Shown here: piece by piece, positions 16,501-46,384 of the stretch
How the letters are laid out: every line of letters begins with the position of its first letter
How positions within the stretch are numbered: position 1 is the stretch's first letter
Origin: Eubacteriales bacterium
Lineage (GTDB): Bacteria > Bacillota > Clostridia > Oscillospirales > CAG-272
Length of the DNA: 52,059 nucleotides
Assembly: GCA_045659365.1 (NCBI GenBank)
Contig: JAZOWT010000105.1
Coordinates: 1 to 52,059, forward strand
Direction of reading: 5' to 3'
The notes under the pieces: model-generated
Seen by the model: only the letters and a program-made list of their open reading frames with translations
What the model was told of the DNA's origin: nothing
Database searches by the model: none
Program-made: the position numbers and the translations under genes

Positions 16501-17127
16501 GAGGCGGCAGAGGGAGAGGTTGTGCGCCGTAATGCCCTACCCGACTTTATGACGGGCACCGAGGCGGACGAGAGCGCGCGCCGCGGAATTGCCACACACA
16601 TGGTGCTTCAGTTCTGCGACCTTGAAAATTTGAAATCAAACGGCGCACGCGCAGAGCTTGAAAGACTGCACGACCTGGACTTTCTCTCATCGCGCAACAA
16701 GGATAGAGTACGTATCCGTGAGATCGACCTTTTTGCAAGATCCGAGCTGTTCCAAAGAATGCTGACAGCGAAAACGCTTTACCGAGAATTGCGCTTCAAC
16801 TGTCGCTTGCCTGCCCACCTTTTCACCAAGAATGAGGAAAAACAGGCCGAATTACGCGACACGGGTATACTCGTACAGGGTGTTATCGACTGTCTGATAG
16901 AAGATGGCGAGGGCAGGCTACACCTTGTAGATTACAAGACCGACCGACTGACTAAGGAGGAGCTTGCCGACGTTGATGCCGCATCAAAAAAGCTTAACAG
17001 TAAGCATGCATTACAGCTTTCGTACTATGCTATGGCAGTCAAGAAAATGTTCGGACGTGAGCCAAGCACAGTCAGTGTATATTCAATGCCCCTCGGTCGC
17101 ACGGTAGCGATCGATATCAAAAAATAA
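13525..17127 (+). CDS. addA: ATP-dependent helicase/nuclease subunit A (UvrD helicase plus C-terminal PD-(D/E)xK nuclease)
   Basis: AAAGSGKT, TFT, DEYQD, VGDIKQSIYSFR, TVHSSKGLE, YVALTRA and GVID..VDYKT..QL..Y motifs; 1200 aa. Confidence 0.9.
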   Translation: MARVFSREQLSAIETRDRTLLVSAAAGSGKTTTLTERIIRSLLDESRPESLENMLIVTFTNASTADMGRKIAEALKEAIKENPENKRLEKELYLLPSARISTIDSFLNEVVRTNAERVGIPPNYRLAEKAECTILECALIDNLIAAAFDGALPEVGTPDEFEAMCDCLTDSKSTRNLSDIFRLLHNKSKSAIEGVGIYQVLANNYLQKEGFSVEDTPYGQDLISLTKDAIKFYTGMLFALADELSAGTAAEQADADVHRQNAEKLSGLENLDTYVKFRDVLQNLKFADMPRCPKNDHTEMLDFGRDEFTKIKKQLSKHYTEFYIYTEEMWRALFSELYSKLSCLARFMKVFDTAYTREKVKRGMLEHSDVSRFAYACLYDEDGKPSDIAEAYAKRFTSVYIDEYQDVNALQDAIFSAVSKNNRFMVGDIKQSIYSFRSAKPEIFAEMKSRFPKLESGTYTPASSIFMSQNFRCDRGIIDFTNEVFDRMFGIVKDSIGFMPEDALVFSKVYKDGKEPPYQPTQIYLIKKPESDDLLEEKTYELRFIARKIRELIDTGHLANGDAIKPSDIAILLRKKDGIESLAAALEDEGVPCEASNPPGYFMNSEVLLTLCLLNAIDNPQKDVYLAGLMCSPLYGFTADDLLTYRMTDRDGTLWRAVCKYAEESPEDERLKRFISSLAHYRCLAEGMNVDALIWRLYNETGLLALASKHGGKDNLMLLYNYARKFEGSSFKGLYSFINYVNNVAARDDGLEDSDNKLTDNNTVKILTVHSSKGLEYPIVFLSEASRKLTNRDLNDRIAYAEGYGMSFNLRGPDGLSLVRNPIQSIIHERINRKFYEEELRILYVALTRAKERLFVTGDMKAKSPEAYFAEMEISGQALTPFGITRLNSYLDMIMASGAGAKVEYIDDFDPQDAQDVLNIPERTPNFNTAVENSTDGADKIYKEILERFLYEYPHRVATEIPEKMSVSRLYPTVLDGSEESVLLFDDGKAEHEAAEGEVVRRNALPDFMTGTEADESARRGIATHMVLQFCDLENLKSNGARAELERLHDLDFLSSRNKDRVRIREIDLFARSELFQRMLTAKTLYRELRFNCRLPAHLFTKNEEKQAELRDTGILVQGVIDCLIEDGEGRLHLVDYKTDRLTKEELADVDAASKKLNSKHALQLSYYAMAVKKMFGREPSTVSVYSMPLGRTVAIDIKK

Positions 17128-17128
17128 A

Positions 17129-17182
17129 CAAAAAAAAGAGAGAACAAATCAGCTGAATAGCCGAGATGCTCTCTCTTTTATT
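17129..17182. terminator. Bidirectional terminator between convergent genes
   Basis: A-tract, agagaga ... tctctct stem, T-tract. Confidence 0.6.
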
Positions 17183-18835
17183 TTATTTTACAACAACAAG
17201 ATTCTCGACGATCCTGTCCATTCCATAGTTGTAATAAACGTTTTCATCGAAATATTCGTCACCGTAGTAATCAAGCATTTCCTCCTTGATCTCTGCGGCG
17301 CGCTTATCGTACGCCTCACCGGTAAGCTTTGAAAGCTCCTCGGCATTGATCTCAAGGTAATACTCGTAGTGGGAGTCGATGATATCGTTGCGGATCTCTT
17401 CAAACTCCGACTTGCTGGGGAGATAATTTTCCTCTCTTACAATATAGTAGAAAATCATTTCCTCAAGGGCGGTTTTCTCCGCCTTTTCCCTCAACGTAGC
17501 GCGCCAGTCAGAGCCCTGAGGCAAGGAAAGGTAATCGGTTGCCGCAAGATCAAAGCTGGTGTAATAGCTGCTGTAAACGGAGTAATAATATGAAACCTCG
17601 TTATAGTAGGTATCGTAATACTGTTCAACGTTATATTCGGGCATCTTCTCAACCTCGACAAGGGCAAAAAGATGATCCCAGACCTTTTCAACAATAAGCT
17701 TTTCGTTGGTGTCGTCGATCTCTTTTTTCAAGCTCTTTTCAAGATGATCCTTGTATTTTGCAACAAGGTCCGCTCCCTCGTAGCTTGCAAGATCGTCTGC
17801 AGTAAGCTTAAGGGTTTCGGTGATGAACTTCTCATCGAGCTCAGGGACTTCATAAACGATCGCGCTGGCGATGTAAACCTCGAAGCAAGCCTCAACACCG
17901 CGCAAAGATGCCTCGGAATAGCTCGCAGGGAAGGTAACGTTGATGGTCAAGGGCGCATTCTCGCATCCGCGGGTAGCGTACTCTATCTTCATGTCACTGT
18001 ATCCGGCGCTGCCTGTACCGTAGGAGAAGGTCTTGGAGGAGAGCTTCTCACCGATGCTCTGCGCCTCGGTGCCCTCGGCAGTGCCAAGGAAGAAGTCCTT
18101 GAAGCCCTTACCGTAGGTCGCATCAACGTCCTCACCAAGATCTATTCTCTCTGCGGTCACCTGCTTGTAGGTTCCTGCCTCATCGGGGTAAAACGCGGTA
18201 TAGGTAAGGTAGATAACGTCACCCTCCTGAACCTTGCCCTCGCTGTACTTCTTGAAGGGCTCGTAGTCCATAGGAACCTTACCGAGCATACCGTCGGTAA
18301 ATCCGGCAATGAAGTATCCTGCATCGCCCGACTCGTCAATTATCTTGCCGGTTCCAACCTCAAGCATAATATGTGTATCCTGCGCAAAGTTGGTGGATAT
18401 TTCCTTTTCCTTACCGTTCTCGTCAATGTAATATCCGCGATACATCAGGGATACAACGTCGCCAAGAGTGATCGGCTTGCTTTTGTAAGCACTGCCGTCG
18501 TAAAGAGGATCCTTGCTCTTGTTCTGAACAAGTATATCGTTTATCTTGCGGACAAGATCCGTTTCGTCATATTCCTCAAGCGCAAGCTCAACGGTTATGT
18601 TTGCATAATCGTCACGCGAGAGGGTGATATACTTTGAAAGATTGTCCTTCATAAGATCGACAGGGCCGCCGCGAATAGCACGAACTATAAGCACGACTGC
18701 CGCCGCAACGATCGCTATTATAAGAATGGAAGCGACAATGGTGAATATTTTCTGTTTTTTGGTCATCGGAATGCTCTTTTTCTGTGCTTTAGCGCTACCC
18801 GTGTAACCTTTTTTGTTATTTTTGTTAGTTGCCAT
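17183..18835 (-). CDS. Membrane-anchored trigger-factor-like FKBP-type chaperone/PPIase
   Basis: Basic N-terminus plus one TM helix, then GDVVSLMY..LEVGTG..FIAGF..G, INVTFPASY..LRGVEACFEV and VPELDEKF, followed by a TF C-terminal-like helical region. No GFRxGxxP ribosome-binding motif. Confidence 0.7.
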   Translation of the reverse strand: MATNKNNKKGYTGSAKAQKKSIPMTKKQKIFTIVASILIIAIVAAAVVLIVRAIRGGPVDLMKDNLSKYITLSRDDYANITVELALEEYDETDLVRKINDILVQNKSKDPLYDGSAYKSKPITLGDVVSLMYRGYYIDENGKEKEISTNFAQDTHIMLEVGTGKIIDESGDAGYFIAGFTDGMLGKVPMDYEPFKKYSEGKVQEGDVIYLTYTAFYPDEAGTYKQVTAERIDLGEDVDATYGKGFKDFFLGTAEGTEAQSIGEKLSSKTFSYGTGSAGYSDMKIEYATRGCENAPLTINVTFPASYSEASLRGVEACFEVYIASAIVYEVPELDEKFITETLKLTADDLASYEGADLVAKYKDHLEKSLKKEIDDTNEKLIVEKVWDHLFALVEVEKMPEYNVEQYYDTYYNEVSYYYSVYSSYYTSFDLAATDYLSLPQGSDWRATLREKAEKTALEEMIFYYIVREENYLPSKSEFEEIRNDIIDSHYEYYLEINAEELSKLTGEAYDKRAAEIKEEMLDYYGDEYFDENVYYNYGMDRIVENLVVVK

Positions 18836-18843
18836 ATTAAGTT

Positions 18844-19284
18844 TTATCCTTCCAAAAAGGAGTCTGCAAAGGATGTGGCAAGAGCATCGCAGCGCTCGTT
18901 GTAAGCGTGTCCGTCATGTCCCTTGACCCATATGAATGTGACCTCGTGGCGCTTGGTAAGGTCATAAAGGCGCTGCCAGAGATCGGGGTTTTTAAGCTCG
19001 TCCCTACCTCGTTTCCAACCGTGGGAGCGCCAGGAGTCAACCCAGCCCTCAAGGAATGCATCGACCACATATTTTGAGTCGGAGTATAGCGTTACACGGC
19101 AGGGCTCCTTAAGTGCCTCAAGTCCGGATATCGCGGCTAAAAGCTCCATGCGGTTGTTGGTGGTTTCCCTCTCACCGCCGGACATCTCCTTCTCATACTT
19201 ACCGTACACGAGTATAGCGCCCCAACCGCCGCGACCGGGGTTGCCACGGCAGGCGCCGTCCGTATAAAGCTGTACTTCTTTCAT
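18844..19284 (-). CDS. rnhA: Ribonuclease HI
   Basis: [24 protein letters not shown] and WVKGH..NERCD motifs. Confidence 0.97.
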
Positions 19285-19301
19285 TTTATATTTATTAACA
19301 G

Positions 19302-19333
19302 GAAATCCGACAGTTTAATTGCTGTCGGATTTC
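19302..19333 (-). terminator. Hairpin downstream of the lipoprotein gene (weak U-tract)
   Basis: gaaatccgacag ... ctgtcggatttc inverted repeat. Confidence 0.65.
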
Positions 19334-19345
19334 ACAAGGTCTTTT

Positions 19346-21508
19346 TTACTCAGTCTCGGTCTTCTCGGTAAGCTCTTCTACGCGCTTAACGGTGCCGATG
19401 TAATCATTCTTATACTCGATAAGAGTAGCGATGCCGTCCTCTTTCTCCTCGGACTTAACAAGCTCGTTCATAAGCTTGTCGAGCTGATATACAATCTCGA
19501 AGCTATCTTCGTAGTAAAGATCTACGTAGTACTCGTAGGTGTAGTTGTCATCAGTGAGATCCTTGAACTCATCCTTGGTGAGAGCAAGATCGAAGGTCTG
19601 TGCAACAAGGTTGATCGCGATAGCCTCAGCAACGTGTGCCTTTGCTGCGTTCTCAACCGCCTCAACAGCCTGCTCGTAGGTTGCATCCTTGATGTCGTAC
19701 TCATTGTATGCAACGTGCTGTGCAAGGAAGTTCTTGAAGCTTCCGTTGTACTGGCTGTAATAGCTCTGTGCAGCGGAGGAGTTGGAGGTGCCGTCGAGCT
19801 TGTAGTTCTCATAGAAGCAGTACTCGTAGCTGTCGATGAGGTACTTGTAAGCTGCCTTAACAGCCTTCTTGGGGTAGTCGGTAACCTTTACGTTCTTGAT
19901 GATCTGATCGTATACGTAAGTAGCAACCTTAGTCTTGATGTCGGAGTTATAAGCGTTCTCAAGGTCCTTGTAAACGACGTTATTCTTGTAACCGGTTACG
20001 ATAGCATCAGCGCCACCCTCAACAGTAGCGTTAAGCTCCTTGATGAGCTCGTTTCTCTTTTCAACTGCATCGTTGTATTCCTTATCGGTACCAACAACAG
20101 CCTTTGTATCCTCAGTAGCCTCTGCGCCGAGGTAAGCCTTTTTGGTCTCCTCAACGTCGTCCTCAGCGGACTTAAGCTTTTTGTTAGCCTCTTCAAGAGC
20201 CTTCTCTGCATTGGTAACTGCAGTCTGGTTAGCGTCGGTGTTCTCCTGAGTGAGCTTATCCTTTGCAGCATCGAGATCAGCCTGCTTGGTTGCAACAGCG
20301 GTCTTTGCCTCTTCAAGAGCGGTTACTGCCTTGTCATACTTGGTCTTAGCAGCCTCGTTAGCAGTCTTGGTATCATTTACCTTGGTCTGTGCAGCGGTAA
20401 GCTTGGTTACGAAGTCCTCAAGAGAGATCTCCTCACCCTCAACGGTGAACTTATACTTCTCAAGGAGCTTGTGTGCGGTATCATCCTCCTCACCCTCAAC
20501 GTGCTCGTGCTCGGAGTAATCCTTACCAAAGAGGATGGTAGCGAGGTTAGCAAGAGTAATGTCCTTGCCGTAGATATTGTTAAGAATGGAGTCAACGGTG
20601 ATGTCAGCAACCTCTACGTAAGAAACTGCGTATACGTGGTAGGTAAGCTCAACGTCCTTGAGATCCTTCTTGGTTGCGGTATTGCCGGTGTAATAGGTGG
20701 GAGCCTCGGTCTTCTCAGTGGTGTAGGTCTTGTCAGTGAAGGTCTTCTCAGTACCCTGCTCTACCCAATCAACAGTGATGTTTGTGTAGGTAGCGGTATC
20801 AACCTTGAGCTCACTGATCTTCTTACCAACGGAAGCGTTGTTGGACTCGGTGTTGAAGTACTCAACAAGAGCTGCATGGAATGCATTGTCGGTAACGTTG
20901 ATAACTTCTCTGTGAAGCTTTGCGTTCTCGGTTACGGTAGCGGTAGCACCCTCAGCGTCAACCTTATCGTAGGTCTTGGTGTAGGTGATGAATACCTTGT
21001 CGCCGTCCTTGATCTTGCCGGTGGTTACCTGCTTGTAAGCAGAATCAGCGGTAAACTCGAAGCCTGCAAAAGCCTCAGCAAGCTTCTTAGCGAAATCGGT
21101 GGAGTAGTCGCTAAGGCCAACCTGAGTGCTGCTTGCTGCGCTCTCCTTCATCTTATCGGTGTAGAAGATCTGCTGATCAGCGCCCTCGCCGATGGTTACG
21201 TAGTAGCAATAGTAGATAAGATCGTAGGTATCAATGGTACCCTCAGTCTTCTTATCGGTGGTGTCTGCCTTCTTAGCAAGAGAGGCCATGATGGTATCAA
21301 GTACCTTCTGAGTTCTGGTCTCGGCATTCTCGGTGAAGTCACCGTCCTCGATCTCGAACTCTGCAAGTGCAGCAAGGAATGCCGCCTTGTCGAATGTGGC
21401 ATAGTCGGTCATATCGTCGTCAATGTAGCTGTAAGCGCAGCTTGCAAGGGCGAGAACAGACATTACTACCACAAGAATTAAGCTGATAATTCTCTTTTTC
21501 ATTGTCAT
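19346..21508 (-). CDS. Lipoprotein, divergent trigger-factor-like, with a coiled-coil insertion
   Basis: Signal peptide with lipobox LAS-C; degenerate FKBP-like strands (DLIYYCY, GDKVFITY, DVELTYHV); Ala/Lys-rich coiled coil; TF-C-like region (VKVTDYPKKAV..AAKAHVAE..IAINLVA). Strong codon bias. Confidence 0.6.
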   Translation of the reverse strand: MTMKKRIISLILVVVMSVLALASCAYSYIDDDMTDYATFDKAAFLAALAEFEIEDGDFTENAETRTQKVLDTIMASLAKKADTTDKKTEGTIDTYDLIYYCYYVTIGEGADQQIFYTDKMKESAASSTQVGLSDYSTDFAKKLAEAFAGFEFTADSAYKQVTTGKIKDGDKVFITYTKTYDKVDAEGATATVTENAKLHREVINVTDNAFHAALVEYFNTESNNASVGKKISELKVDTATYTNITVDWVEQGTEKTFTDKTYTTEKTEAPTYYTGNTATKKDLKDVELTYHVYAVSYVEVADITVDSILNNIYGKDITLANLATILFGKDYSEHEHVEGEEDDTAHKLLEKYKFTVEGEEISLEDFVTKLTAAQTKVNDTKTANEAAKTKYDKAVTALEEAKTAVATKQADLDAAKDKLTQENTDANQTAVTNAEKALEEANKKLKSAEDDVEETKKAYLGAEATEDTKAVVGTDKEYNDAVEKRNELIKELNATVEGGADAIVTGYKNNVVYKDLENAYNSDIKTKVATYVYDQIIKNVKVTDYPKKAVKAAYKYLIDSYEYCFYENYKLDGTSNSSAAQSYYSQYNGSFKNFLAQHVAYNEYDIKDATYEQAVEAVENAAKAHVAEAIAINLVAQTFDLALTKDEFKDLTDDNYTYEYYVDLYYEDSFEIVYQLDKLMNELVKSEEKEDGIATLIEYKNDYIGTVKRVEELTEKTETE

Positions 21509-21572
21509 TCTTTCCTCTATGTTTTTTTATTTTAAACGGTTAAAAACGCAACGTATATAACGCGCATCAATC

Positions 21573-21601
21573 ATTATATCATACTTTTTCAAAAAAATCA
21601 A
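21573..21601 (-). promoter_or_regulatory. sigmaA promoter of the lipoprotein gene
   Basis: Minus strand TTGATT-17 bp-TATAAT with TG extension. Confidence 0.7.
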
Positions 21602-21635
21602 ATGTTTTTTTAAATTTTTATGATATTTATTAAAA

Positions 21636-24593
21636 TCAGAAGTCATAACCGCTCTCAAGGTCGAATTCCTCGCCGTTAACAAGAGCAATAAAGTTATTTA
21701 CGATCTTCTTGAAGCCGTAGGTCGAGATGTAGAAATCGGATACTGCATCTGACTGGAGCATATTTCCGTTTTCATCCTCCTGATACAGGCGGACAACCAC
21801 GCGGCGGTCTGCGGTACGGTAGAACTCATAGGTGTAGTAATTCTCGTCGGTGTCGTCGCCATCCTTATCGGTGTCGATCTTGAGCGAGAATCTCATAAGC
21901 ATCTTGCACTCCTCGATTGCAAAGTCCTGCTCTGCCTGATCAACAGCACCCTCAAAGTCAACGTAGAACATCGAAAGGATGAACTCCTTGAAATAGGTGG
22001 TACCGAGAGTATCGGGGAAATATGCGTTATGCTTATCCTTATCCGCTATGGTATTCTCATAAAGCTCATCAAGAGTATAATACTTTCTGTCATTCTCCTG
22101 CATAAGCTCAATGAGTTTGTTGGAGGTACACTCTCCGCTTGTCTGAACGTTGACCTTTATGCGGTCGAAGGTGTCAGAGTAGCTTTCGGGAGCCTTACCG
22201 CCGATCTGGATACCGGTAGAGGTGATGTAGGAGAGCTGATGTATAATGTCAAGCTCGTAGTTTCCTACAAAGTCATCGAGTGCAAACTCGATCTTGATCT
22301 GTTGCATGAACTCAACGTCGGTCATGAGCATATTCTTTCTTGCCCAGAGATCGACGAAGCTCTCCTCAAGGAAGAAGAAGGGAGAGTTATCCGCCTTTAC
22401 TATAATGTCGTAAAGATCGGAGGCGATTATTCTTGTGCCGTCATCCTGAATATCACTGATATAAAGGGTGAAGCCAAGCTTCTCGTAGTAGGTGTAGTCA
22501 TCGAGGGTCTCGTCATCACCACTGTCGATAGCAACAAGGTTTCTCGGAAGCTCGAAGTAAATTCTATGCTCGTAAAGGCCGAGCTCATAAAGCTTCTCGG
22601 GAGTGATACCAACCGCAACCACCTCGACACCCGAAAGACCGACGGAGGTAGAAGTGTTATCCGAAACACCGCCGATAAGCTGGAGGATCTGGTAGCATAC
22701 GTTGTAATCAAGACCGTAGAGGAGATAATCGTCAGTCTTGTTCTCGTAAATCGAGTCGCCGTAGAACGGATCGCGCTCGGAGTAGGAGAGGAAGCTGAGT
22801 GATACGATCTCCTTCTTTGTGATGAAGTACTTGATCTGACTGATCTGGTAGGTGCTGAAGTTCTTGAACGCCTCGAAGTACTGAGGCTCAAGATCAAGGG
22901 TTATCGATATGAACGAGGTGGTCTTACCGATTATGAGATCCTTGAGCTTGGTTTCAAACTCATCAGCAGGTTTTTTGAGATCGATGATACCGATATGCTC
23001 CTCGTCGTCAAGCACACCGTTTATAATGAGCTGGTAGCGGAATGAAACAATCGAATCCTCGGCAATCTTCTCGACCGCCTTACCGTCCTGGTTTTCGATC
23101 TCGATGATCTGGGTTATCTTCGCGCTGTAATTTACCTTAGTGGCATTTGCGCGGCTGTAATTGATGTCAAAGGTGATGGGAGAATCAAGCTTGCCGATCA
23201 CACCGGCACGAAGCGCTGCCACAGCGTCCTCAGGAAGTGCCATAGACTCAAGATCGATGATAGCATGAGAGAGCATCGGGCCCTGTGACTTTCCGTCAAC
23301 GGTGTAGTAGTAAGCAACCTTGATAAGGTTGTTCGAGCCGACCGCAGTGCCGACCTTGGTTACGTCGTCACCGTCACCGATTATAGACTCGATCTCGACG
23401 ATCTTGTAGCTGTACTTAACCGAATCCTTAGTCGAAAGATCGATGTTGTGCGATGCATCGGTGTCGGATATTATGGTGAAGATTATAGCATCGTCGCGAT
23501 CCGCAAGAGGATCGGTGGGATCGTAATATTTGCCTATAAGCTTACCTACGACCGCGTTTTTGATAACCGAGTTTACACTGTCAGACGTGAGGTCAATGGT
23601 CATCTCGGACTCGCCGGAAAAGTCGTATCCGTTAAGATAATCGGCATATCCGGAGGGGTCATCGATATAGCTTGAGGGATCAATAGGAACAAAGAGGTTT
23701 GCGGATACGATAACCTCAGACTTACCGGGAACGGCAGTACCCTCGGTATCGCAAAGCTCGGTTACCCAGTGGGTAAACTCGGGAGTGTAGATGGGCTCAA
23801 GGGTTGAGTCCTGTGAAAGACCTGCCGCGATGATAGAGGTCTTTACGTAAGAGAAGAAGCCGCGCATAGCGTACTCGTAGTACGAGGAGAGCGAGCTGTA
23901 AACGTAAGGACGGTCATCGATCATAAAGTAGTATCCGGCGCCGGTAACAAGCGCGTCACCAATGACGATCTTGTGTGTTTTCTGAGAGCCGTCGGTATCC
24001 TTATAATCAAAGGTTATCGTGGTGGTATTCTCATCAAAGCCGAACTCCTTATACTGCTCGGCGCGCTCGGTCTCGTTGGTGGAGAGAGGAATGCGCTCAC
24101 CGAAGTATGCGGTTTCAAGTGCGCTGGTGAGATAGGTTATACGGTGGATGGTTCCGTATCCGTCGTTGGTCTCGTATGCATAGAGGTCACTGTACTCAAA
24201 CGAGCTGTCCTCATCGCATATTGAGGGGTAATACACCTTTATTTCACCGTTATCCATGTACGCGAACATGAAATCATTGTCGGCGATCTCGGAGCGGTAA
24301 AGGGTGAAGTATCCATCCTTGAGGGTGGTGTTGTTTACTGTGATACGGATGATGTTTTTGTCTTCTACAACGGGATAGGCGACTGCGGTGTTACGGTAGA
24401 TTCCCTCTCCGTCAATAATTTCGGGAGGAACCTTGGTTGTTGTACCGTCTGAGCCGGAGTTATCATTCTTGATAGCTACCGATGCGATTATAGCGCCTGC
24501 AAGGAGAACGAGGAACACACCGAGGAGTATCAGTGTCATGCGCATTTTCTTCTTGCTACGCGCGATGCTTTCAATTTGCTGTCTTGTTTTCAT
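21636..24593 (-). CDS. Large single-TM extracytoplasmic protein, DUF4340-like, 985 aa
   Basis: N-terminal TM. YKEFGF..TITF..HKIVIGD...GAGYY...PYVY and LYELGL..FTLYIS segments resemble DUF4340. It lies in the usual position after GldG-like genes. Confidence 0.6.
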   Translation of the reverse strand: MKTRQQIESIARSKKKMRMTLILLGVFLVLLAGAIIASVAIKNDNSGSDGTTTKVPPEIIDGEGIYRNTAVAYPVVEDKNIIRITVNNTTLKDGYFTLYRSEIADNDFMFAYMDNGEIKVYYPSICDEDSSFEYSDLYAYETNDGYGTIHRITYLTSALETAYFGERIPLSTNETERAEQYKEFGFDENTTTITFDYKDTDGSQKTHKIVIGDALVTGAGYYFMIDDRPYVYSSLSSYYEYAMRGFFSYVKTSIIAAGLSQDSTLEPIYTPEFTHWVTELCDTEGTAVPGKSEVIVSANLFVPIDPSSYIDDPSGYADYLNGYDFSGESEMTIDLTSDSVNSVIKNAVVGKLIGKYYDPTDPLADRDDAIIFTIISDTDASHNIDLSTKDSVKYSYKIVEIESIIGDGDDVTKVGTAVGSNNLIKVAYYYTVDGKSQGPMLSHAIIDLESMALPEDAVAALRAGVIGKLDSPITFDINYSRANATKVNYSAKITQIIEIENQDGKAVEKIAEDSIVSFRYQLIINGVLDDEEHIGIIDLKKPADEFETKLKDLIIGKTTSFISITLDLEPQYFEAFKNFSTYQISQIKYFITKKEIVSLSFLSYSERDPFYGDSIYENKTDDYLLYGLDYNVCYQILQLIGGVSDNTSTSVGLSGVEVVAVGITPEKLYELGLYEHRIYFELPRNLVAIDSGDDETLDDYTYYEKLGFTLYISDIQDDGTRIIASDLYDIIVKADNSPFFFLEESFVDLWARKNMLMTDVEFMQQIKIEFALDDFVGNYELDIIHQLSYITSTGIQIGGKAPESYSDTFDRIKVNVQTSGECTSNKLIELMQENDRKYYTLDELYENTIADKDKHNAYFPDTLGTTYFKEFILSMFYVDFEGAVDQAEQDFAIEECKMLMRFSLKIDTDKDGDDTDENYYTYEFYRTADRRVVVRLYQEDENGNMLQSDAVSDFYISTYGFKKIVNNFIALVNGEEFDLESGYDF

Positions 24594-24609
24594 GCTTTTC
24601 CCTCCTTTA

Positions 24610-26289
24610 TCACAGGAAGCGGCGTCTTACACAGACGACTGCACCTGCAAGCAGAATAATGAAAGGAACAGCAGCAACAACGATCGTATATACGATCTTC
24701 TCGGTATTGGAGATACCGAAGTTTACCTTTACAACCTCGGAGGCATCGGGAGCATATATCTCGGTGTCCTCGGTGGAAAGGGTTGTGCTCACGAGCTGCT
24801 TACCGCCGAAGGAGGAGGAGTTAAGAGAGGTGCCTCCAAGCTCGAGCGACGCGTAAACGTCAACGCGGGAGATGTTATTTATAAGCGCCATCATTATGTC
24901 GTAGTTGGCATATGCGGCATTGGAAAGCGATTCATTGGAGAAGAAGTCTGCGGATGCGGCACAGAAGAGGTAGGAGTGAGTGTGCTCAGCGGTAACCGAG
25001 TCAAACGACTGTCTTACCGTAAGGGCCGCAAGATCGAACGTGCCGGTGGAGTCAAGCACCGAGCTGTCGTCATAGTTTCCGGAGGCATCACTGTAAAAAT
25101 AGGAGGATGCCTTATCGGATGATTTAAGGAAGGGGGCGTATCTCTTTACGGTTTCAGCCGAGCCTGCCTCGTTTTTGAATCCCTTCTCACCGTAGGAGTT
25201 GGTGATGTATCCGGTGTTATTAACGGTGGTACGTGCAGAGGTCGCAAGGCTTGCATAATCGCCGTAGATCGCGTTAGCATAGCTATCCACCTCGGTTTCG
25301 TAAACGGCGATAAGGTTCTTGCCCTCACTGCCGGCAACGGAAAGCTCGGTGTCGCGTACCTGAGAGGTGCTGAAATCAAAGCCCCACTCGTGGAGGAAGT
25401 CCTCAAGGTTAGGCAGTGAAAGTGACTGATCGTAGTCCTTGGTAACGATGATAGCACCCTGGTTGTTTACGAGGTACTTATCAAGCTTTTCAAGATCGGA
25501 TACGTACGAGAGGGAGTTGTACTGGTCGGGATAGGTAACAAAATCCTCTCTGGGATTGTTGATTATAAGAAGCGCGCAATCATTGGGGATCTGCTCGATC
25601 TCGGAGATAGCAAGCGTCTTTACCTGCAGACCGCAGTCGGTGAGAAGATTGTAGAAGTAAGCGGTGTTTACGCTCGACTCACAGGTGGGATCAGCGGGGT
25701 TGTAGTAGGTTTCACCGTGGTCGGTAAGGAAGTATGCCACGGGCTGGTTGATGGCGGTTACCGACTTGATAAGGGTTGCCATACGGTACTCGCCGTTGTA
25801 GGAGAAGTAATCGGAGGTCCAGAAGTTGAGCGCGCCGACTATTCTGTATCTGTCGCCGTAGGATACCACGACGTCAGTGGAGTTGATCTTGGTAAGAGAT
25901 GTGCTCTTGTATTTTGTAAGTGCGGTGGGGTTGGTGTTGACGTTTATCGTCTCAACCTCAACGTTTGAATATTTTTTCTGAAGCTCGAGCGCCATGTAGT
26001 AGGTTGCCCTGGTATCGAAGTTCGACACGAGCCTGTCGGGATCGGTGCAGAAGGTTATCTTCACACACTTATCGCCGTCGGTCTCGCCGAGCTTATCTAC
26101 AAAGGCACATTCCTTTACCATCGCTTCGGTCAAGGAGTAAAGTCCCTCCGGTGTGGCATCTATAAACCAGTTGCGCCCGCCGCCTATTATCGACAGGGCA
26201 AGGTTGATGCCAAGGAGCGCGACTACAACACCGACCGTTATGACGGAAAAGATAACCGTGCGCTTGCTTTTTCCTTTAAAAATTCTCAT
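24610..26289 (-). CDS. GldG-like ABC-type auxiliary (uncharacterized transport system) protein
   Basis: N- and C-terminal TM helices; IDATPEGLYSLT, AYFLTDHGE, IPNDCALLIINNPREDF and YANYDIMM motifs; ends CVRRRFL. Confidence 0.8.
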   Translation of the reverse strand: MRIFKGKSKRTVIFSVITVGVVVALLGINLALSIIGGGRNWFIDATPEGLYSLTEAMVKECAFVDKLGETDGDKCVKITFCTDPDRLVSNFDTRATYYMALELQKKYSNVEVETINVNTNPTALTKYKSTSLTKINSTDVVVSYGDRYRIVGALNFWTSDYFSYNGEYRMATLIKSVTAINQPVAYFLTDHGETYYNPADPTCESSVNTAYFYNLLTDCGLQVKTLAISEIEQIPNDCALLIINNPREDFVTYPDQYNSLSYVSDLEKLDKYLVNNQGAIIVTKDYDQSLSLPNLEDFLHEWGFDFSTSQVRDTELSVAGSEGKNLIAVYETEVDSYANAIYGDYASLATSARTTVNNTGYITNSYGEKGFKNEAGSAETVKRYAPFLKSSDKASSYFYSDASGNYDDSSVLDSTGTFDLAALTVRQSFDSVTAEHTHSYLFCAASADFFSNESLSNAAYANYDIMMALINNISRVDVYASLELGGTSLNSSSFGGKQLVSTTLSTEDTEIYAPDASEVVKVNFGISNTEKIVYTIVVAAVPFIILLAGAVVCVRRRFL

Positions 26290-26303
26290 ATATTTTCCAT
26301 TCT

Positions 26304-27875
26304 TTATCTATTTTTGCGTCTGATCACAACGACCGCACCGAGTATGGCGATGGTTGTGGGCACGGCAAGAACTATTGCCGTGTAAAGGTTTGCCGTGCTC
26401 ATAGTGAGATTTTCAAGGACACTGCTGTCGTAGAGTACCGACTGGCATCCGTATGGCATATTCTCAGCACCGTAGAGGTACTCGATAAGAGAATATATGA
26501 AATCCTTGTTTGAATATCCGTTGGTTACAAGTGCATCGGACACTGTCATGTAAATACTGGACACAACGAAGATGTTACCCGTTTCCTTACCGTCGGCAGA
26601 GGTAACGGTGTTGTATGCGGCAACCGGGAATGATCCGCCGGTCTTGGTAACGATGCCTGCATTCTCACAGCTTGCGCTACGTGAGGATGTCAGAAGAGCC
26701 TGTGCGGTACCGCTGAGGGTAAGCGCGCCCGCCTCTCTGATGATAACGTCGTTATCCGAATACTTATCCATATTTTCACTGATCTGGGTGGCAATCGTGC
26801 CGTCAGCGTGCTCAGTTACAATGGTATAACCGTTGGTGGTGATCGCATTGGCACCGTCTCTTACGATATCGCGGTAGATCTTGCCGTCGATCTCGGTCTC
26901 GGAAAGGCCGATGCCGTAGCCCTCAAGAAATGTCTCGAGGCTATAAAGCTTCTTTACGTAGGGGTCAAGAGAAACGTAAAGGTTTCCGCCGCGCTTGAGG
27001 TATGCCTCAAGACGTCCTATCTCAGAGGTTGCAACCGCAACACCCGATCCGTCGATGGATATCTCAAAATCGCTTCTGGGGTTAGAGATCACAAGCAGAT
27101 CTGCATCATCGGGCACTGCACTGTCGCGCAGGCTGATCATATCGCTCTCGTATCCCGCCGCCATAAGAAGCTTTACGAAGCTTGAGTCGACCTGCTCACT
27201 GTGTGTGGTGGTGAAATAAGCCTTCTTATGCTCCTCGGCAAGCACCCAGGATATCATGGTGGCAAAGAATTCCTCGCCGTCGTAGGAAAGGATATAGCCG
27301 TTCGAGTCAAGGGAGTAGAAATCGGCATAGCCGGCGCTTGTGTAAGCATCGGTAACAACCTTATACTCACCGCTTTCAACACACTCGAATATAACGGAGC
27401 TCTTCAGGATCACCTCGTCGTTTTCCGTATAGTTGGAAAGGGGGAAGCGATTACCCTTTGAGTCGCGCTTGGTGATTATGTTGATGTACTCTATGTCTAT
27501 AAATTCAGGATATCTTTCCTTATAAAGCTGAGCCGTTTCGTAAACGAGAGAGCCGGTATCGTGTGCGGAAACCGTTTCCTCATCGTTACAGAAGTAGATC
27601 TTGACCGTTCTCTTCTTTGCAATAGCCTCGGCAAAGATGGCGTCGGTCGAGCCGGTAAGGGTCTGCGGATCGTCCTTTGTGGGCGAGAAATACAGACGGA
27701 ACAAGGAAGCAAGGATATAGAACATCACGTTGAAGACGAGAATTACCGCTATTACCATGACGGTAACAGAAGCGGAGAACACGCGTTCCTCACGGACTAT
27801 CGGGCGCTCTACGTTGCGCTTTTCAACAGGCGCGCCGGCTTCCTTTCTTTTTTCGTTTTGTGGATATTTTTTCAT
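26304..27875 (-). CDS. GldG-like ABC-type auxiliary protein (second paralog)
   Basis: Same topology; AYFTTTHSE, VPDDADLLVISNPRSDF, YLKRGGNL and YSNKDF motifs; ends IRRKNR. Confidence 0.8.
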   Translation of the reverse strand: MKKYPQNEKRKEAGAPVEKRNVERPIVREERVFSASVTVMVIAVILVFNVMFYILASLFRLYFSPTKDDPQTLTGSTDAIFAEAIAKKRTVKIYFCNDEETVSAHDTGSLVYETAQLYKERYPEFIDIEYINIITKRDSKGNRFPLSNYTENDEVILKSSVIFECVESGEYKVVTDAYTSAGYADFYSLDSNGYILSYDGEEFFATMISWVLAEEHKKAYFTTTHSEQVDSSFVKLLMAAGYESDMISLRDSAVPDDADLLVISNPRSDFEISIDGSGVAVATSEIGRLEAYLKRGGNLYVSLDPYVKKLYSLETFLEGYGIGLSETEIDGKIYRDIVRDGANAITTNGYTIVTEHADGTIATQISENMDKYSDNDVIIREAGALTLSGTAQALLTSSRSASCENAGIVTKTGGSFPVAAYNTVTSADGKETGNIFVVSSIYMTVSDALVTNGYSNKDFIYSLIEYLYGAENMPYGCQSVLYDSSVLENLTMSTANLYTAIVLAVPTTIAILGAVVVIRRKNR

Positions 27876-27889
27876 CGTGTACCTCGTTA

Positions 27890-28597
27890 TCAGTTATAGC
27901 GACGACGGTCGTAGATACGAACCGTGAGGTATCCGAAGATAATTGCTACGGAGATGTAGTACACTATCGATGCGATATCGATAACACCGTTTGTGAAGTA
28001 CTGGAATCTGGTGAAGATGGAGAGAAAATTAAATACGTAGCGGATCGCGTAGTCGGAGGGGAAAAGGCTTCCGATAAGACCGATAGCAAGGAATCCGAGG
28101 ATGATCGCTATGGTGCCGATAGCAGCGGTAAGCTGGTTCTCGGTAAGTGCAGAAACGAAAAGTCCGATCGCGATAAATACAAGGCCCACAAGCAGGGATG
28201 CGATAAGGCAGCCGAAAAGCACCGCAACCTTGAGTGAGGAGTAGTTAAGAAGAACGAGGCAGTAAAGGGTGTTGAGCACCATACAGCCGGCATAGATCGA
28301 GTACGCGGCAAGGAACTTACCTACCACGATACCGATAATAGATACGGGAGCTGTGAGCAGAAGCTGCTCGGTCTTTACCTTACGCTCCTCGCTGAACGAC
28401 TTCATCGTAAGAAGAGGAAGAACTATTCCGGAGAGAAGAAGCATGATGGTAAAGTAGCTGGTAACGTCCGAGGACATCGAATAAAGGGTGGTGTAGCAAA
28501 GCACCGCACCCGAAAGTGCAAGATAAAGCACGAGGAATACGTATCCGATTACGCTCGTGAAATAGGAGCGCATTTCTTTTTTGAAAACTGCAAGCAT
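27890..28597 (-). CDS. ABC-2 type permease, GldF-like
   Basis: KKEMRSYFTS..GYV, PLLTMKSFSEERK..TEQLLLTAP and GKFLA motifs; about 6 TM helices. Confidence 0.9.
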   Translation of the reverse strand: MLAVFKKEMRSYFTSVIGYVFLVLYLALSGAVLCYTTLYSMSSDVTSYFTIMLLLSGIVLPLLTMKSFSEERKVKTEQLLLTAPVSIIGIVVGKFLAAYSIYAGCMVLNTLYCLVLLNYSSLKVAVLFGCLIASLLVGLVFIAIGLFVSALTENQLTAAIGTIAIILGFLAIGLIGSLFPSDYAIRYVFNFLSIFTRFQYFTNGVIDIASIVYYISVAIIFGYLTVRIYDRRRYN

Positions 28598-28609
28598 TTC
28601 TGTTCCTCC

Positions 28610-29599
28610 TTAATGTGCGCGCTTGCGCTTCTGCGACTGTGTGGGCTCTACTCCGTCGGAGCGGTCAACAAGTCTGATGAATATAGATTCAAGGTCGGTG
28701 CCAACGGGCATCATACCTATGATAGGCCAGCTCATACGTGCGCAGAGATTGAACACCGACTTACGTACGTCGATGCCGCGCTCGGACTCGATACGGAACG
28801 CGAAGGAATCTGCATCGCGCTCGTTGGTAGCCTCGATCATCTTAACGCCGGGAAGCTTCTCAAGTGCGACCTTGACCTCCTTCTGGGGGCCGCAGATCTT
28901 AACCTGATAGCGGTAGCCGTCCTCAATGGTCTTGGTAAGGTTCTCGGTGCGCTCGTCAGCGATGATCTTACCCTTGTTGATGATTATGATACGCTCGCAG
29001 ACAGCTTGTACCTCTGCAAGAATATGAGTCGAAAGAATGACGGTGTGACGCTTACCGAGGGTACGGATAAGGTTTCTTACCTCAAGTATCTGCTTGGGGT
29101 CAAGACCAACGGTGGGCTCGTCGAATATAATGACCTTAGGGTCGCCAACGAGAGCCTGCGCGATACCGACACGCTGCTTATAACCCTTGGAGAGGTTCTT
29201 TATAAGTCTGTTCTTAACGTCAACAAGACGAACGACTGAGATGATCTCGTCGAGGTGCTGCTTTCTGTCAAGGGTACAGCCCTTAAGCTCGTAGACGAAG
29301 TTAAGGTATTCGATAACCGTCATATCGGGATACACAGGAGGCTGCTCGGGGAGGAAGCCTATCTGCTTTTTCGCCTTTATCGGCTCATCGAGTATATTTA
29401 TGTCATCAACATAAGCACCGCCGGATGTAGTGGAGAGATAACCGGTGAGTATGTTCATGGTCGTACTCTTACCCGCGCCGTTAGGACCGAGAAGACCGAC
29501 AATTTCACCCTCGCCGATTTCGAAGCTTATGTCGTCAAGTGCATAGTTAGTACCGTATCTCTTTACGAGATGGTCTACCTTGATAATAGAATTTCCCAT
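28610..29599 (-). CDS. ABC transporter ATP-binding protein, GldA-like
   Basis: GPNGAGKST, LSKGYKQR, DEPTVGLDP and STHIL motifs. ATG at 29599 follows a GAAAGGA RBS. Confidence 0.92.
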   Translation of the reverse strand: MGNSIIKVDHLVKRYGTNYALDDISFEIGEGEIVGLLGPNGAGKSTTMNILTGYLSTTSGGAYVDDINILDEPIKAKKQIGFLPEQPPVYPDMTVIEYLNFVYELKGCTLDRKQHLDEIISVVRLVDVKNRLIKNLSKGYKQRVGIAQALVGDPKVIIFDEPTVGLDPKQILEVRNLIRTLGKRHTVILSTHILAEVQAVCERIIIINKGKIIADERTENLTKTIEDGYRYQVKICGPQKEVKVALEKLPGVKMIEATNERDADSFAFRIESERGIDVRKSVFNLCARMSWPIIGMMPVGTDLESIFIRLVDRSDGVEPTQSQKRKRAH

Positions 29600-29817
29600 A
29601 GGAAACAAATTTCCTTTCATTATTTGCAGATATGTATGCTTACGCAATTTTATATTATACTATATAATTATAAATAAATTATGAACAAACGCGCACAATT
29701 TAAAATATATTTGTAAACTAATTTTGGCTGAAATTCCACGTCTTACAGTCAAGTGATCGCAAAACGCGTACAAGTTACAAAAGTTTTCCTCTTGTTGCGG
29801 AAAGTGGCGGATAGATA

Positions 29818-29847
29818 TTGACAAATGGCACCTCCGCGGTGTATAAT
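29818..29847 (+). promoter_or_regulatory. sigmaA promoter of glyA
   Basis: TTGACA-18 bp-TATAAT. Confidence 0.75.
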
Positions 29848-29898
29848 ACACAAAAAATATTTATAATGTCGCAAAAAAGCGACGGATTGGAGCTATGT

Positions 29899-31143
29899 AT
29901 GAAGGACAACGAATTACTCAAGCGCTACGACCCCGAGATCTACGAAGCCGTAGAAAAGGAAACCGCAAGGCAGAGAAACAAGATCGAGCTTATCGCGTCC
30001 GAAAACTTTGTTTCCGAGGTAGTAATGGAGGCTAACGGCACCACCCTTACCAACAAGTATGCCGAGGGCTATCCCGCAAAGAGATACTACGGCGGATGCG
30101 AGAACGTGGATATCGTCGAATCCCTCGCAATCGAGAGAGCAAAAAAGCTTTTCGGTGCAGGATATGCCAACGTACAGCCCCACTCCGGCGCACAGGCAAA
30201 CATGGCCGTGTTCTTCGCTCTTCTCGAGCCGGGCGACACCGTTCTTTCGATGAACCTTGCACACGGCGGTCACCTCTCTCACGGCTCACCCGTAAATATG
30301 TCCGGTAAGTACTGGAACATCGTTCCATACGGAGTTACCGAAAAAGACGGCACGATCGATTACGAGGAGGTAAGACGCCTTGCGCTTGAAAGCAAGCCCA
30401 AATTGATACTTGCAGGCGCATCAGCATACCCCCGTGTGATAAATTTCGAGAAATTCTCGGCAATCGCCAAGGAGGTTGGAGCCTATCTCATGGTAGATAT
30501 GGCGCACATTGCCGGCCTTGTTGCAGCAGGTGAGCACCCCTCGCCCGTACCCTATGCCGACGTTGTTACAACCACCACCCACAAGACTCTTCGCGGTCCT
30601 CGTGGCGGCCTTATCCTCACCAACGACGAGGAGATGGCAAAGAAGATAAACAAGGCTATCTTCCCCGGCACTCAGGGTGGCCCGCTCATGCATACCATCG
30701 CCGCCAAGGCGGTCTGCTTCAAGGAAGCGCTTTCCGATGATTTTAAGACCTATGCAAAAAATGTGGTCAAGAACAGTGCCGCACTCGCTGACGAGCTTCT
30801 CAAGGAAGGCTTCAAGCTTGTATCGGGCGGCACCGACAATCACCTTATGCTCGTTGACCTCAGCGGAATGAAGATAGACACAGGTAAAGAGGCGGAGCAT
30901 CTGCTCGACGAGATCGGCATCACCTGTAACAAAAATGCTATTCCCTTTGACACCAAGAGCCCTTTCATCACCAGTGGCATCCGTCTTGGCTCAGCAGCCA
31001 CCACAACACGCGGCTTCAATGAGGACGATATGCGCGAGGTTGGTCGCATAATTTCGATAACGCTCAAGGATTTTGATGCCAACAAAGAGGAAGCACGCAC
31101 AAGAGTGGCGGCACTCTGTAAAAAGTATCCGCTTTATGAATAA
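29899..31143 (+). CDS. glyA: Serine hydroxymethyltransferase
   Basis: [34 protein letters not shown] and GGTDNHL motifs. ATG at 29899 has a GGAG RBS. Confidence 0.97.
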
Positions 31144-44936: not shown

Positions 44937-45130
44937 TAGGTTTTCCACAAAAGAATGTTATTTTACGGTGGAAAACGGTGTTGAGCTCAATAAACAGTAT
45001 TCCACACTTAAGCAACAGAAAATTGTGGAATAAAAGAGGCAAAAAAACCGCGGAATATAAGGGCTCAGACGACATTTCCACAATTTCAACACCCCCTACA
45101 ACGACAACACCTACCAAATAAACCATTATT
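44937..45130. other. Replication origin oriC (dnaA-dnaN intergenic)
   Basis: DnaA-box-like 9-mers: TTTTCCACA 44941, GGTGGAAAA 44967, TATTCCACA 44998, TGTGGAATA 45024, and tandem ATTTCCACA/ATTTCAACA 45074-45091. These are followed by CCCCC, trio-like TAC AAC GAC AAC and an AT-rich stretch. Confidence 0.85.
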
Positions 45131-45229
45131 TGTTCTTCTGCCTCCGGCAAGGAAAACGAAAGCGGCATGGCCGCAAGAAAACAAAATCGGAATGTCTTGT
45201 CCTAGCGGGCAGACGGAATGGAGTATAAA

Positions 45230-46384
45230 ATGAAATTTACAGTACAGAAATCTACTTTTATGAACGTGCTCACTCCTGCGATGGGTACGGTATCGAATAA
45301 AAATACTATCACCTCTATCGAGGGTATCCTCATCGAAACTCTCGATAACGGAAAGGTGAGGATCTCCTCTTACGACATGAACAAGGGCGTGCGTGCCGTG
45401 TTCGAGCCTATCTCTATCGAGGAGGAGGGCCGCTTCATTATCAATGCGCAAAGACTTTATCAGACTGTGCGCGTTCTTCCTGAGGATGAGCTTACCATTG
45501 AGGTAAACGATAAGCTCAACTGCATCATCACCTGCGGAAAGGCAAACTTCTCTATGTTTGCGACCAGAGGCGAGGACTTCCCTAACCTTCCCGACCTTGT
45601 ATCCGACAGAGGCTTTGAGATAAGCTCCTCCGTTCTCCGTACCATAATCGGTAAGGTTGCACACTCGGTAGCGGTTCAGGATAACAGAGTTATGCTTACC
45701 GGTGCTTACTTCAAGATCAAGAGCGACGAGATGGAGGTAGTTTCCTGCGATAACTACACCCTTTCCAAGTGCAAGGTTAAGTGTGAAATCGGCGCGGCAA
45801 ACGAGGCAAGCGCGGTTGACTACTCCTTCATTATTCCCGGACATGCTCTTTCCGAGATCGTTAAGATCCTCCCCGACAACGATGAGTTCAAGTGCGTGTT
45901 CTACCTTTCCAGAAAGCACGCGATCATCAGATGCGACGATATCGTGTTCTTCACCAGAACGATCGATTCCGAGTACATAGATTATAACCGCATCACACCC
46001 AAGGATAACGACATATTCGTTACCGTTGCAAAGGACAGGATTCTTTCCGGTCTTGAGCGCGCGAACATCATTGCTGAGGAAAGAATTCAGGGATCGGGCA
46101 GAAGCTACGTTAAGCTTAAGACCGACGAGCAGACTCTCATAATCACCTCCTCCTCCGTAAACGGCCGCGTATCCGATGAGATGGACTGCGTGCATGAGGG
46201 TGGCGATATCGAGATCGGCTTCAACTGTCGCTACCTCATCAACAGCATCAGAGTTGCAGACGGTGAGAATATCAAGATCTCTCTTAAGTCTCCTACTCAT
46301 GCGATCACCATTGAGCCCGCTGAGGAAAACGGTGAATTTGATTACTTCTACATGATTCTTCCCGTAAGGATGAACGAGCAGTAA
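45230..46384 (+). CDS. dnaN: DNA polymerase III beta clamp
   Basis: MKFTV..., DFPNLP, IGFNCRYL and MILPVR motifs; position after dnaA. Start is 45218 or 45230 (GGAG precedes 45230). Confidence 0.95.
   Translation: MKFTVQKSTFMNVLTPAMGTVSNKNTITSIEGILIETLDNGKVRISSYDMNKGVRAVFEPISIEEEGRFIINAQRLYQTVRVLPEDELTIEVNDKLNCIITCGKANFSMFATRGEDFPNLPDLVSDRGFEISSSVLRTIIGKVAHSVAVQDNRVMLTGAYFKIKSDEMEVVSCDNYTLSKCKVKCEIGAANEASAVDYSFIIPGHALSEIVKILPDNDEFKCVFYLSRKHAIIRCDDIVFFTRTIDSEYIDYNRITPKDNDIFVTVAKDRILSGLERANIIAEERIQGSGRSYVKLKTDEQTLIITSSSVNGRVSDEMDCVHEGGDIEIGFNCRYLINSIRVADGENIKISLKSPTHAITIEPAEENGEFDYFYMILPVRMNEQ

Follow-up and report, generated by a model that had tools for sequence, protein, structure and literature searches.

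The stretch of DNA analysed here (the window) is the 52,059-nt contig C105 (JAZOWT010000105.1 of assembly GCA_045659365.1) from a Eubacteriales bacterium of the GTDB lineage Oscillospirales; CAG-272. It contains, on the minus strand, a locus of eight genes in which an ATP-binding cassette (ABC) module related to GldA, GldF and GldG and ending in a DUF4340 protein is followed by two trigger factor (TF)-like proteins, a predicted lipoprotein of 720 amino acids (aa) and a 550-aa protein with a transmembrane (TM) anchor, here called TF550, with the RNase HI gene rnhA between them (Table 1). The source genome comprises 1.89 Mb in 138 contigs and is 88.9% complete with 1.34% estimated contamination. 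The window also codes for SpoIIE, GerA and SpoVAC/AD and includes the dnaA-recF-gyrBA region, and therefore the organism is regarded as a spore-forming member of the Clostridia and the locus as lying near the replication origin. The open reading frame (ORF) listing and the Pfam matches confirmed the description given in a first, sequence-only reading of this DNA, which had listed eight co-oriented minus-strand genes in this order with gaps of 8-16 nt except around the lipoprotein gene. Along the locus the gaps measure 12, 14, 14, 16, 127, 61 and 8 nt, the lipoprotein gene being flanked by those of 127 and 61 nt. The locus is best described as two adjacent units, the ABC module of five genes and the unit lipoprotein-rnhA-TF550. 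By simple hydropathy and the lipobox, the five large proteins that are neither ABC subunits nor RNase are predicted to be anchored in the membrane with most of the chain outside.

Table 1. Genes and putative signals of the locus, with positions in the window.
Feature	Position	Strand	Description
ABC ATPase, GldA-like, 329 aa	28610..29599	-	ATG start; TTG 29647 = possible alternative start; Pfam ABC_tran 112 bits
ABC-2 permease, GldF-like, 235 aa	27890..28597	-	Pfam ABC2_membrane_2 39 bits; multiple hydrophobic segments
GldG-like protein 1, 523 aa	26304..27875	-	Pfam ABC_transp_aux 28.8 bits (cut-off 34.7); hydrophobic segments 29-64, 494-520
GldG-like protein 2, 559 aa	24610..26289	-	Pfam ABC_transp_aux 30.6 bits (cut-off 34.7); hydrophobic segments 8-39, 529-559
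Long DUF4340 protein, 985 aa	21636..24593	-	Pfam DUF4340 32.2 bits (cut-off 25); hydrophobic segment 16-44
Promoter of sigma-70 type before the lipoprotein gene (putative)	21573..21601	-	TTGATT, 17 nt, TG-n-TATAAT, A-rich stretch ahead
TF-like lipoprotein, 720 aa	19346..21508	-	lipobox, FKBP-like region, coiled-coil insertion ~330-500, helical region like the TF C-domain
rnhA, RNase HI, 146 aa	18844..19284	-	Pfam RNase_H 150 bits
TF550, TM-anchored TF-like chaperone, 550 aa	17183..18835	-	short cytoplasmic tail, one TM segment, two FKBP-like beta domains, probable TF C-domain
Weak terminator-like hairpin after the TF550 gene	17149..17164	-	consensus scan only

TF550 has one hydrophobic segment (residues 26-60). 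Its family comprises 100 clusters or more, with proteins of 500-590 aa that stem from metagenomes and metagenome-assembled genomes. Its Pfam match to Trigger_C reaches 19.1 bits, under the cut-off of 22.7 bits, and in a six-frame search the Trigger_C scores were 20.6 bits for TF550 and 13.3 bits for the lipoprotein. Many homologs of TF550 carry both FKBP_C and Trigger_C (PF05698), and FKBP_C is found in both orthologs from G427, a more distant genome labelled as the same genus as the window's. The tig model TIGR00115 matches TF550 with 63.3 bits (cut-off 180.2), and the alignment starts only at profile position 202. A profile built from 16 TF550 sequences matched the trigger factors 1t11 (E 1.7e-8) and 1w26 (E 5e-6) of the PDB over the last part of the peptidyl-prolyl isomerase (PPIase) domain and the stretch joining it to the C-domain, where the conserved pattern FP..Y....L.G....F...V....ELPEL.DEF aligns with both structures. 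The same profile also matched the trigger factor PPIase domains 1hxv and 1l1p, and an FKBP-type PPIase domain is hence present by sequence and predicted fold. The AlphaFold2 (AF2) model of TF550, calculated from a 70-sequence alignment (pLDDT 88.2, pTM 0.77), consists of a disordered tail, a long N-terminal helix (26-54) that spans the hydrophobic anchor, a pair of beta-rich domains and, at the C-terminus, a helical domain matching that of trigger factors. A Foldseek search of the PDB with this model returned trigger factors at the top (2vrh, 1w26, 7zgi and 3gty, with probability 1.0 and E 2e-8 to 5e-6); the tandem-FKBP proteins FKBP51/52 came next, and the TF PPIase domain was matched as well. 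The TM-scores of the TF550 model were low (0.2-0.4), which is expected because it is a flexible multi-domain protein.

The 720-aa protein matched neither a Pfam family nor TIGR00115. Its signal peptide ends in L-A-S-C and the cysteine is invariant in 16/16 homologs, so that it is predicted to be anchored as a lipoprotein. When the family profile of the lipoprotein (16 sequences) was aligned with that of TF550 using hhalign, the two matched at 99.7% (E 3.3e-25) over 400 columns, the coiled-coil insertion of the lipoprotein remaining unaligned; a BLASTP comparison of the two proteins gave E 1e-5. Neither protein contains Trigger_N (Pfam, E<=0.01) or a match to the regular expression GFRxGxxP, the ribosome-binding signature of trigger factor. 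The tig product of the same genome has this signature as GFRKGKAP at residue 44. Rotamase and SurA_N (Pfam) are absent from all proteins of the locus. The earlier suggestion that both proteins are TF-like, lack the ribosome-binding motif and carry export signals is therefore well supported, by the PDB profile matches, AF2 model and Foldseek result for TF550, by hhalign for the lipoprotein, and by the N-terminal TM anchor of the one and the lipobox of the other. Judged by profiles and a predicted structure, TF550 and the lipoprotein are paralogous chaperones of the FKBP/TF type without a ribosome-binding domain, which would be fixed by their anchors on the outer side of the cytoplasmic membrane.

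Some lipoprotein homologs are larger. Those at L016:6999-9410, L022:7078-9378 and L024:7094-9481 have an extra block that repeats the FKBP-like strand motif G-D-x-V-x-V-S-Y-T, and this points to an additional duplication of an FKBP-like domain in some lineages; the homolog at L012 reaches 1012 aa, its coiled-coil and insert being far longer. The lipoprotein gene of the window is mirrored almost fully by an antisense ORF, also of 720 aa (19319-21481, plus strand), without a Pfam match and with a low-complexity translation rich in Leu, Val and Gly. It is most likely a shadow ORF, produced by codon usage in the lipoprotein gene, which is acidic and poor in Pro. A comparable shadow ORF lies over dnaN (45086-46300 on the minus strand versus 45218-46384 on the plus strand).

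The TF-like proteins of the window resemble trigger factor (Tig) in having an FKBP-type domain followed by a probable helical C-terminal 'arms' domain. They differ from it in that the N-terminal ribosome-binding domain is replaced by a TM anchor or a lipobox facing outward, and further in the second FKBP-like beta domain of TF550 and the coiled-coil insertion of its lipoprotein paralog. PceT/RdhT of organohalide respirers are dedicated TF-like chaperones without the ribosome-binding domain, which are cytoplasmic and serve dehalogenases exported by the twin-arginine (Tat) pathway. The likeness to these proteins lies in a specialised trigger factor minus its N-domain, encoded beside the client system; however, the proteins of the window carry export signals. 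Smaller relatives also exist. We found short TF-like lipoproteins of 357-443 aa with a lipobox, one FKBP domain and the TF C-domain, covering positions 105-410 of the tig profile, and such short lipobox homologs without ribosome-binding domain are present at L030, L031, L032, L033, L034, L035, L038, L039 and L040. Two of the three tested score above the tig cut-off of 180.2 bits (188.6 and 200.2 bits), and automatic annotation is likely to name such lipid-anchored trigger factors without N-domain as cytoplasmic 'trigger factor'. Exported, lipid-anchored trigger factors are, according to these predicted features, a broad family in the Clostridia and not peculiar to the present cluster, the link to the ABC module being restricted to one subclade.

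For the ATPase the best NCBIfam match was GldA (TIGR03522, 310.6 bits, cut-off 402.6) and for the permease GldF (TIGR03518, 106.3 bits, cut-off 288.5), both below equivalog level. One GldG-like copy aligned with nearly the full ABC_transp_aux profile (2-286 of 288) at a score under the cut-off, and the two copies are 25% identical to one another (E 7e-21). The module resembles the GldA/GldF/GldG proteins of Bacteroidota gliding in the best matches of its ATPase and permease, and its accessory proteins have weak matches to ABC_transp_aux. It differs from them in that all of these scores are sub-cut-off, the host is a spore-forming member of the Clostridia, and the module has two GldG copies and a DUF4340 partner. 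The DUF4340 protein exceeds the gathering score of PF14238, and 14/17 members of its family match. Aligned by hhalign with the DUF4340 proteins of about 500 aa from the same GTDB family, it matched at 99.9% (E 2.7e-37) with a large middle part unaligned; from this profile comparison the 985-aa protein is a DUF4340 protein of about 500 aa with a lineage-specific insertion at approximately residues 300-620. Its AF2 model (pLDDT 77.8) has an N-terminal TM anchor and a beta-rich ectodomain for which Foldseek found no credible fold match in the PDB, the best being DDB1 (probability 0.13, TM-score about 0.06). The FKBP-like domains that the sequence-only reading had tentatively assigned to this protein were not recovered, and this suggestion is rejected: Pfam FKBP_C was present in 0/17 family members at E<=1, hhalign with the TF profile aligned the membrane-anchor region only (52%), and Foldseek gave no FKBP or TF match.

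The distribution of the module was examined in a class sample of 399 evenly drawn Clostridia genomes and in a family sample of 100 genomes (97 genera) from the window's GTDB family. DUF4340 was found in 225/399 genomes of the class sample and in 97/101 genomes of the family. In a quick maximum-likelihood tree of 104 module ATPases, all modules of the family form one clade (SH-aLRT 98) that includes those of the window and of G427 and those with an adjacent PrsA-like gene (see below); this clade nests among the class-level modules. On the basis of this tree and the matches described above, the five-gene unit of the window is the lineage ortholog of an ABC-2/GldG/DUF4340 envelope module that is common among the Clostridia. 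A second, paralogous ABC-2/DUF4340 module occurs in many family genomes (L053, L054, L055, L057), and its ATPases form a separate clade (SH-aLRT 99). In the window's genome a third GldG-like ORF (645 aa) is found on contig C112 (2686-2895), with no second DUF4340 match.

Consensus scans for promoters and terminators gave site counts not above those of shuffled sequences (20 versus 15.7 +/- 4.0 and 14 versus 11.2 +/- 3.3, respectively). Among the scanned sites only the putative promoter at 21573-21601 gained support, through conservation. It agrees with the consensus at 10/12 positions in addition to the TG extension and sits in the 127-nt gap, and in 10/10 aligned intergenic regions of related loci the -35, spacer and extended -10 blocks show little or no variation. 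The consensus scan found no terminator-like site between the two units of the window, and therefore read-through is possible. There was no Rfam match in 16900-30000 at E<=0.1.

Related loci were obtained by scanning one genome per species for homologs of TF550, which yielded 18 loci whose TF550 relatives are 30-72% identical to that of the window. The order GldG-GldG-DUF4340-lipoprotein-rnhA-TF550 is kept in 16/16 loci with 10 kb of upstream DNA, and wherever the DNA reaches far enough the permease (14 of these loci) and the 3' end of the ATPase gene (6) are seen as well. The two shorter loci retain part of the lipoprotein gene, rnhA and TF550, so that all 18 keep this portion. rnhA lies between the two TF-like genes in all 18 and in G427, and is 69-95% identical across all of these and 76-95% within the 18, well above the 30-72% of its neighbours. 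The order in G427 is ATPase-permease-GldG-GldG-DUF4340 (618 aa)-TF-like (523 aa)-rnhA-TF-like (512 aa). The downstream flank addA-truB is kept in 7/13 loci with at least 6 kb of downstream DNA and is absent in 6/13, with the cluster intact, and the gene order holds although identity falls to 31% for DUF4340 and to 30% for TF550. The conserved order therefore exceeds general colinearity. The sequence-only reading had made its proposal depend on synteny of the TF-like genes with the Gld-like module in related genomes, and such synteny is indeed found within one subclade (the 16/16 loci and G427). In the class sample no full-length match of the TF550 type was detected outside the window's genome, the others being canonical tig or shorter TF-like ORFs. 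A tie between the long form of DUF4340 and the TF-like genes was considered and rejected, since G427 pairs its TF-like genes with the 618-aa form and DUF4340-type ORFs of 683-1198 aa are found in 12 other genera without TF-like genes.

We then asked what is encoded immediately behind DUF4340 in the rest of the family. The survey covered 72 places in the family sample, namely those among the matches listed whose open frame spans some 480 aa or longer (shorter frames and 56 unlisted matches lie outside it). Five of the 72 were dropped, four belonging to the second, paralogous module (ATPase at most 304 bits) and one lacking the module; of the 67 orthologous modules that remained, 58 were assessable, with at least 1 kb beyond the DUF4340 stop. 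In 17/58, all from separate genomes, DUF4340 is directly followed on its strand by a gene for a PrsA-like lipoprotein of 305-373 aa with a lipobox and Pfam Rotamase and/or SurA_N. The distance from DUF4340 to this gene ranges from -38 to +189 nt and is 10 nt or less in 10/17, these values being based on longest-ORF starts so that overlaps may be overestimated. One further PrsA-like gene lies 3.4 kb from the module. None of the 58 modules has a TF-like gene, and rnhA was not found beside any PrsA-adjacent module. Where the other slot genes had a Pfam match they were unrelated housekeeping genes (peptide deformylase, RimP, Ddl, RF, TGT and others), several having no match, and besides the PrsA-like genes the only recurrent families were RimP and APH-type kinase genes, seen twice each.

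PrsA is the usual parvulin-type lipoprotein foldase of Gram-positive bacteria at the membrane-wall interface, according to the review PMC12445088. The TF-like proteins of the window would share with it the character of a membrane-tethered extracytoplasmic PPIase-chaperone, and PrsA-like proteins share the slot behind DUF4340; in contrast to PrsA, their PPIase class is FKBP and not parvulin, and there are two paralogs, one of which is TM-anchored rather than lipid-anchored. The PrsA-adjacent genomes have 2-4 parvulin genes each (5/5 checked), which suggests that the PrsA-like gene in the slot is a specialised copy. In 5/5 genomes examined that carry the cluster with long DUF4340 (the window's and G501-G504, further cluster-bearing genomes) the search for exported parvulins found only a parvulin of about 250 aa without signal peptide; the window's genome also has no match to SurA_N_3. 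The suggestion in the sequence-only reading that the TF-like pair is a possible alternative to PrsA thus gains independent support, both from the PrsA-like genes in the same slot and from the lack of an exported parvulin in the cluster genomes. The window's genome retains a canonical, full tig on contig C16 (3976-5214). A second tig locus on C121 (1-1040), where the frame is broken by stops near the contig start and is followed by clpP, could represent a genuine paralog, heterogeneity between strains or contaminating DNA.

The occurrence of two different foldase families in a single slot is what would be expected if a functionally linked partner had been displaced by a non-orthologous one, and because of this we consider a functional coupling of the foldases with the ABC module to be plausible, at a probability of about 0.5. 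The TF-like pair would in this case be a non-orthologous replacement of a module-associated extracytoplasmic foldase. The chaperones would act as holdase or foldase at the membrane-wall interface, and their clients may be the module's own large ectodomains (GldG, DUF4340) or cargo handled by the ABC motor.

Several observations weigh against such a coupling. The lipoprotein gene follows the 127-nt gap and is preceded by a conserved putative promoter of its own, and therefore the two units need not be co-transcribed. No foldase at all is present in the locus for 40/58 family modules, which means that the module needs no co-encoded one. rnhA codes for a cytoplasmic enzyme and is as strictly kept in the cluster as the chaperone genes, so that conserved position alone is no proof of shared function. 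The short TF-like lipoproteins occur in 6 family genomes and in 3 from other families, where roughly 10 kb around them contains no module, and therefore such chaperones can be general-purpose. These same four points agree with a different explanation, namely that the TF-like proteins are general extracytoplasmic foldases by which PrsA was replaced genome-wide, their position reflecting inherited order or a loose co-regulation of envelope genes; the lack of exported parvulins in the 5/5 cluster genomes, which leaves a general foldase role to be filled, is also in its favour. That lack has to be read with the completeness of the genomes, which is 88.9% for the window's and is not given for G501-G504. 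Moreover, G427 has the TF-like pair together with two exported parvulins elsewhere, and TF-like and parvulin foldases are therefore not mutually exclusive. A purely general role does not, however, account for an unrelated foldase in exactly the same slot in 17/58 modules, often overlapping the DUF4340 stop, nor for the additional parvulin genes elsewhere in the PrsA-adjacent genomes, nor for a cluster that stays intact when its downstream flank changes, and we regard this explanation as somewhat unlikely.

The limited reach of the association also counts against a functional coupling. The TF-linked cluster is found in one subclade only, G427 being its sole representative among the 100 genomes of the family sample. 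Using our own hidden Markov models and phmmer seeds rather than Pfam, no PrsA-like or TF-like gene was detected in the fetched stretch at any of 38 assessable class-level loci (0/38), in about 40 families outside the window's. All counts come from kin genomes and are hence not independent. Perhaps close kinship alone explains the gene order, neither the TF-like nor the PrsA-like adjacency being functional. Such phylogenetic inertia would fit with the origin of every TF-linked locus in one subclade and with the restriction of PrsA adjacency to one GTDB family; in the quick tree PrsA adjacency is scattered within the ATPase clade, and the well-supported branches are compatible with a single origin. 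However, inertia is difficult to reconcile with an order held at 30% identity in TF550 and 31% in DUF4340 with turnover of the flank, with two unrelated foldase families in one slot, or with the 10/17 PrsA-like genes that start within 10 nt of the DUF4340 stop or overlap it (longest-ORF starts), and we consider it very improbable.

The strongest form of a coupling would be the ATP-driven folding machine suggested in the sequence-only reading. In it the ABC-2 motor would act through GldG and DUF4340 and cycle the tethered chaperones on their clients, by analogy with the NosDFY system. NosY is an ABC-2-type permease. In the assembly of nitrous oxide reductase, ATP binding by NosDFY releases the lipoprotein chaperone NosL and recruits the client enzyme, as described in PMC13685413. 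The likeness would be that an ABC ATPase and permease drive an extracytoplasmic partner which alternates between a lipoprotein chaperone and a client, and this mechanistic precedent is one argument for the machine. The locus of the window offers analogous parts: alongside an ATPase and a 6-TM ABC-2 permease that lacks a large ectodomain, it encodes membrane-anchored partners outside the cytoplasm and a chaperone of the lipoprotein type. The repeated occurrence of a foldase in the slot is a further argument. On the other side, no relation of DUF4340 or GldG to NosD in sequence or fold was found, DUF4340 being dissimilar in Foldseek to NosD or any solved fold, and NosL carries copper and does not fold proteins. 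Most modules are without a co-encoded foldase, and the two units are probably separate transcription units. We therefore consider an ATP-driven machine rather doubtful, and a mechanical coupling of ATP hydrolysis to chaperone cycling, as in NosDFY-NosL, purely speculative.

Two further features of the window lie outside the locus. alaS (38199-40814, plus strand) is split by a single TAG (40128-40130) into ORFs of 643 and 220 aa in the same frame, with the translation MALFGE*YGDKVRVV at the junction, at a position usually occupied by a conserved Lys codon (AAG). An error in the assembly or consensus, a variant of this strain and a genuine nonsense codon in this essential gene are all conceivable. 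At the start of the window, an ORF of 834 aa (37-2541, plus strand) has no Pfam family at E<=1e-5.

Modules of the GldA/F/G type with DUF4340 are very common in the Clostridia and have no assigned substrate. In the searchable literature DUF4340 is mentioned only sparsely and singly, and the GldG literature concerns gliding in the Bacteroidota; a search for published work on exported, extracellular or membrane-anchored trigger factors found none, subscription journals being outside this search. What is new here is the pairing of known kinds, a Gld-like ABC module with chaperones of the TF and PrsA types, and a recurrent foldase partner that swaps families would be the first concrete functional handle on this module in Gram-positive bacteria. 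A real coupling would be relevant to the question of how, in the absence of extracellular ATP, large surface proteins are folded in monoderm bacteria. As a long shot, the ABC-2/GldG/DUF4340 module of the Clostridia might be a generic ATP-powered engine for extramembrane work. In the window's family it would then help surface proteins to fold or assemble, and tethered foldases that can replace one another, a PrsA-like parvulin or a TF-like FKBP protein, would dock on GldG/DUF4340. If this were true, the module would be the first described device that couples energy to protein folding on the outer side of the Gram-positive membrane, where ATP is absent.

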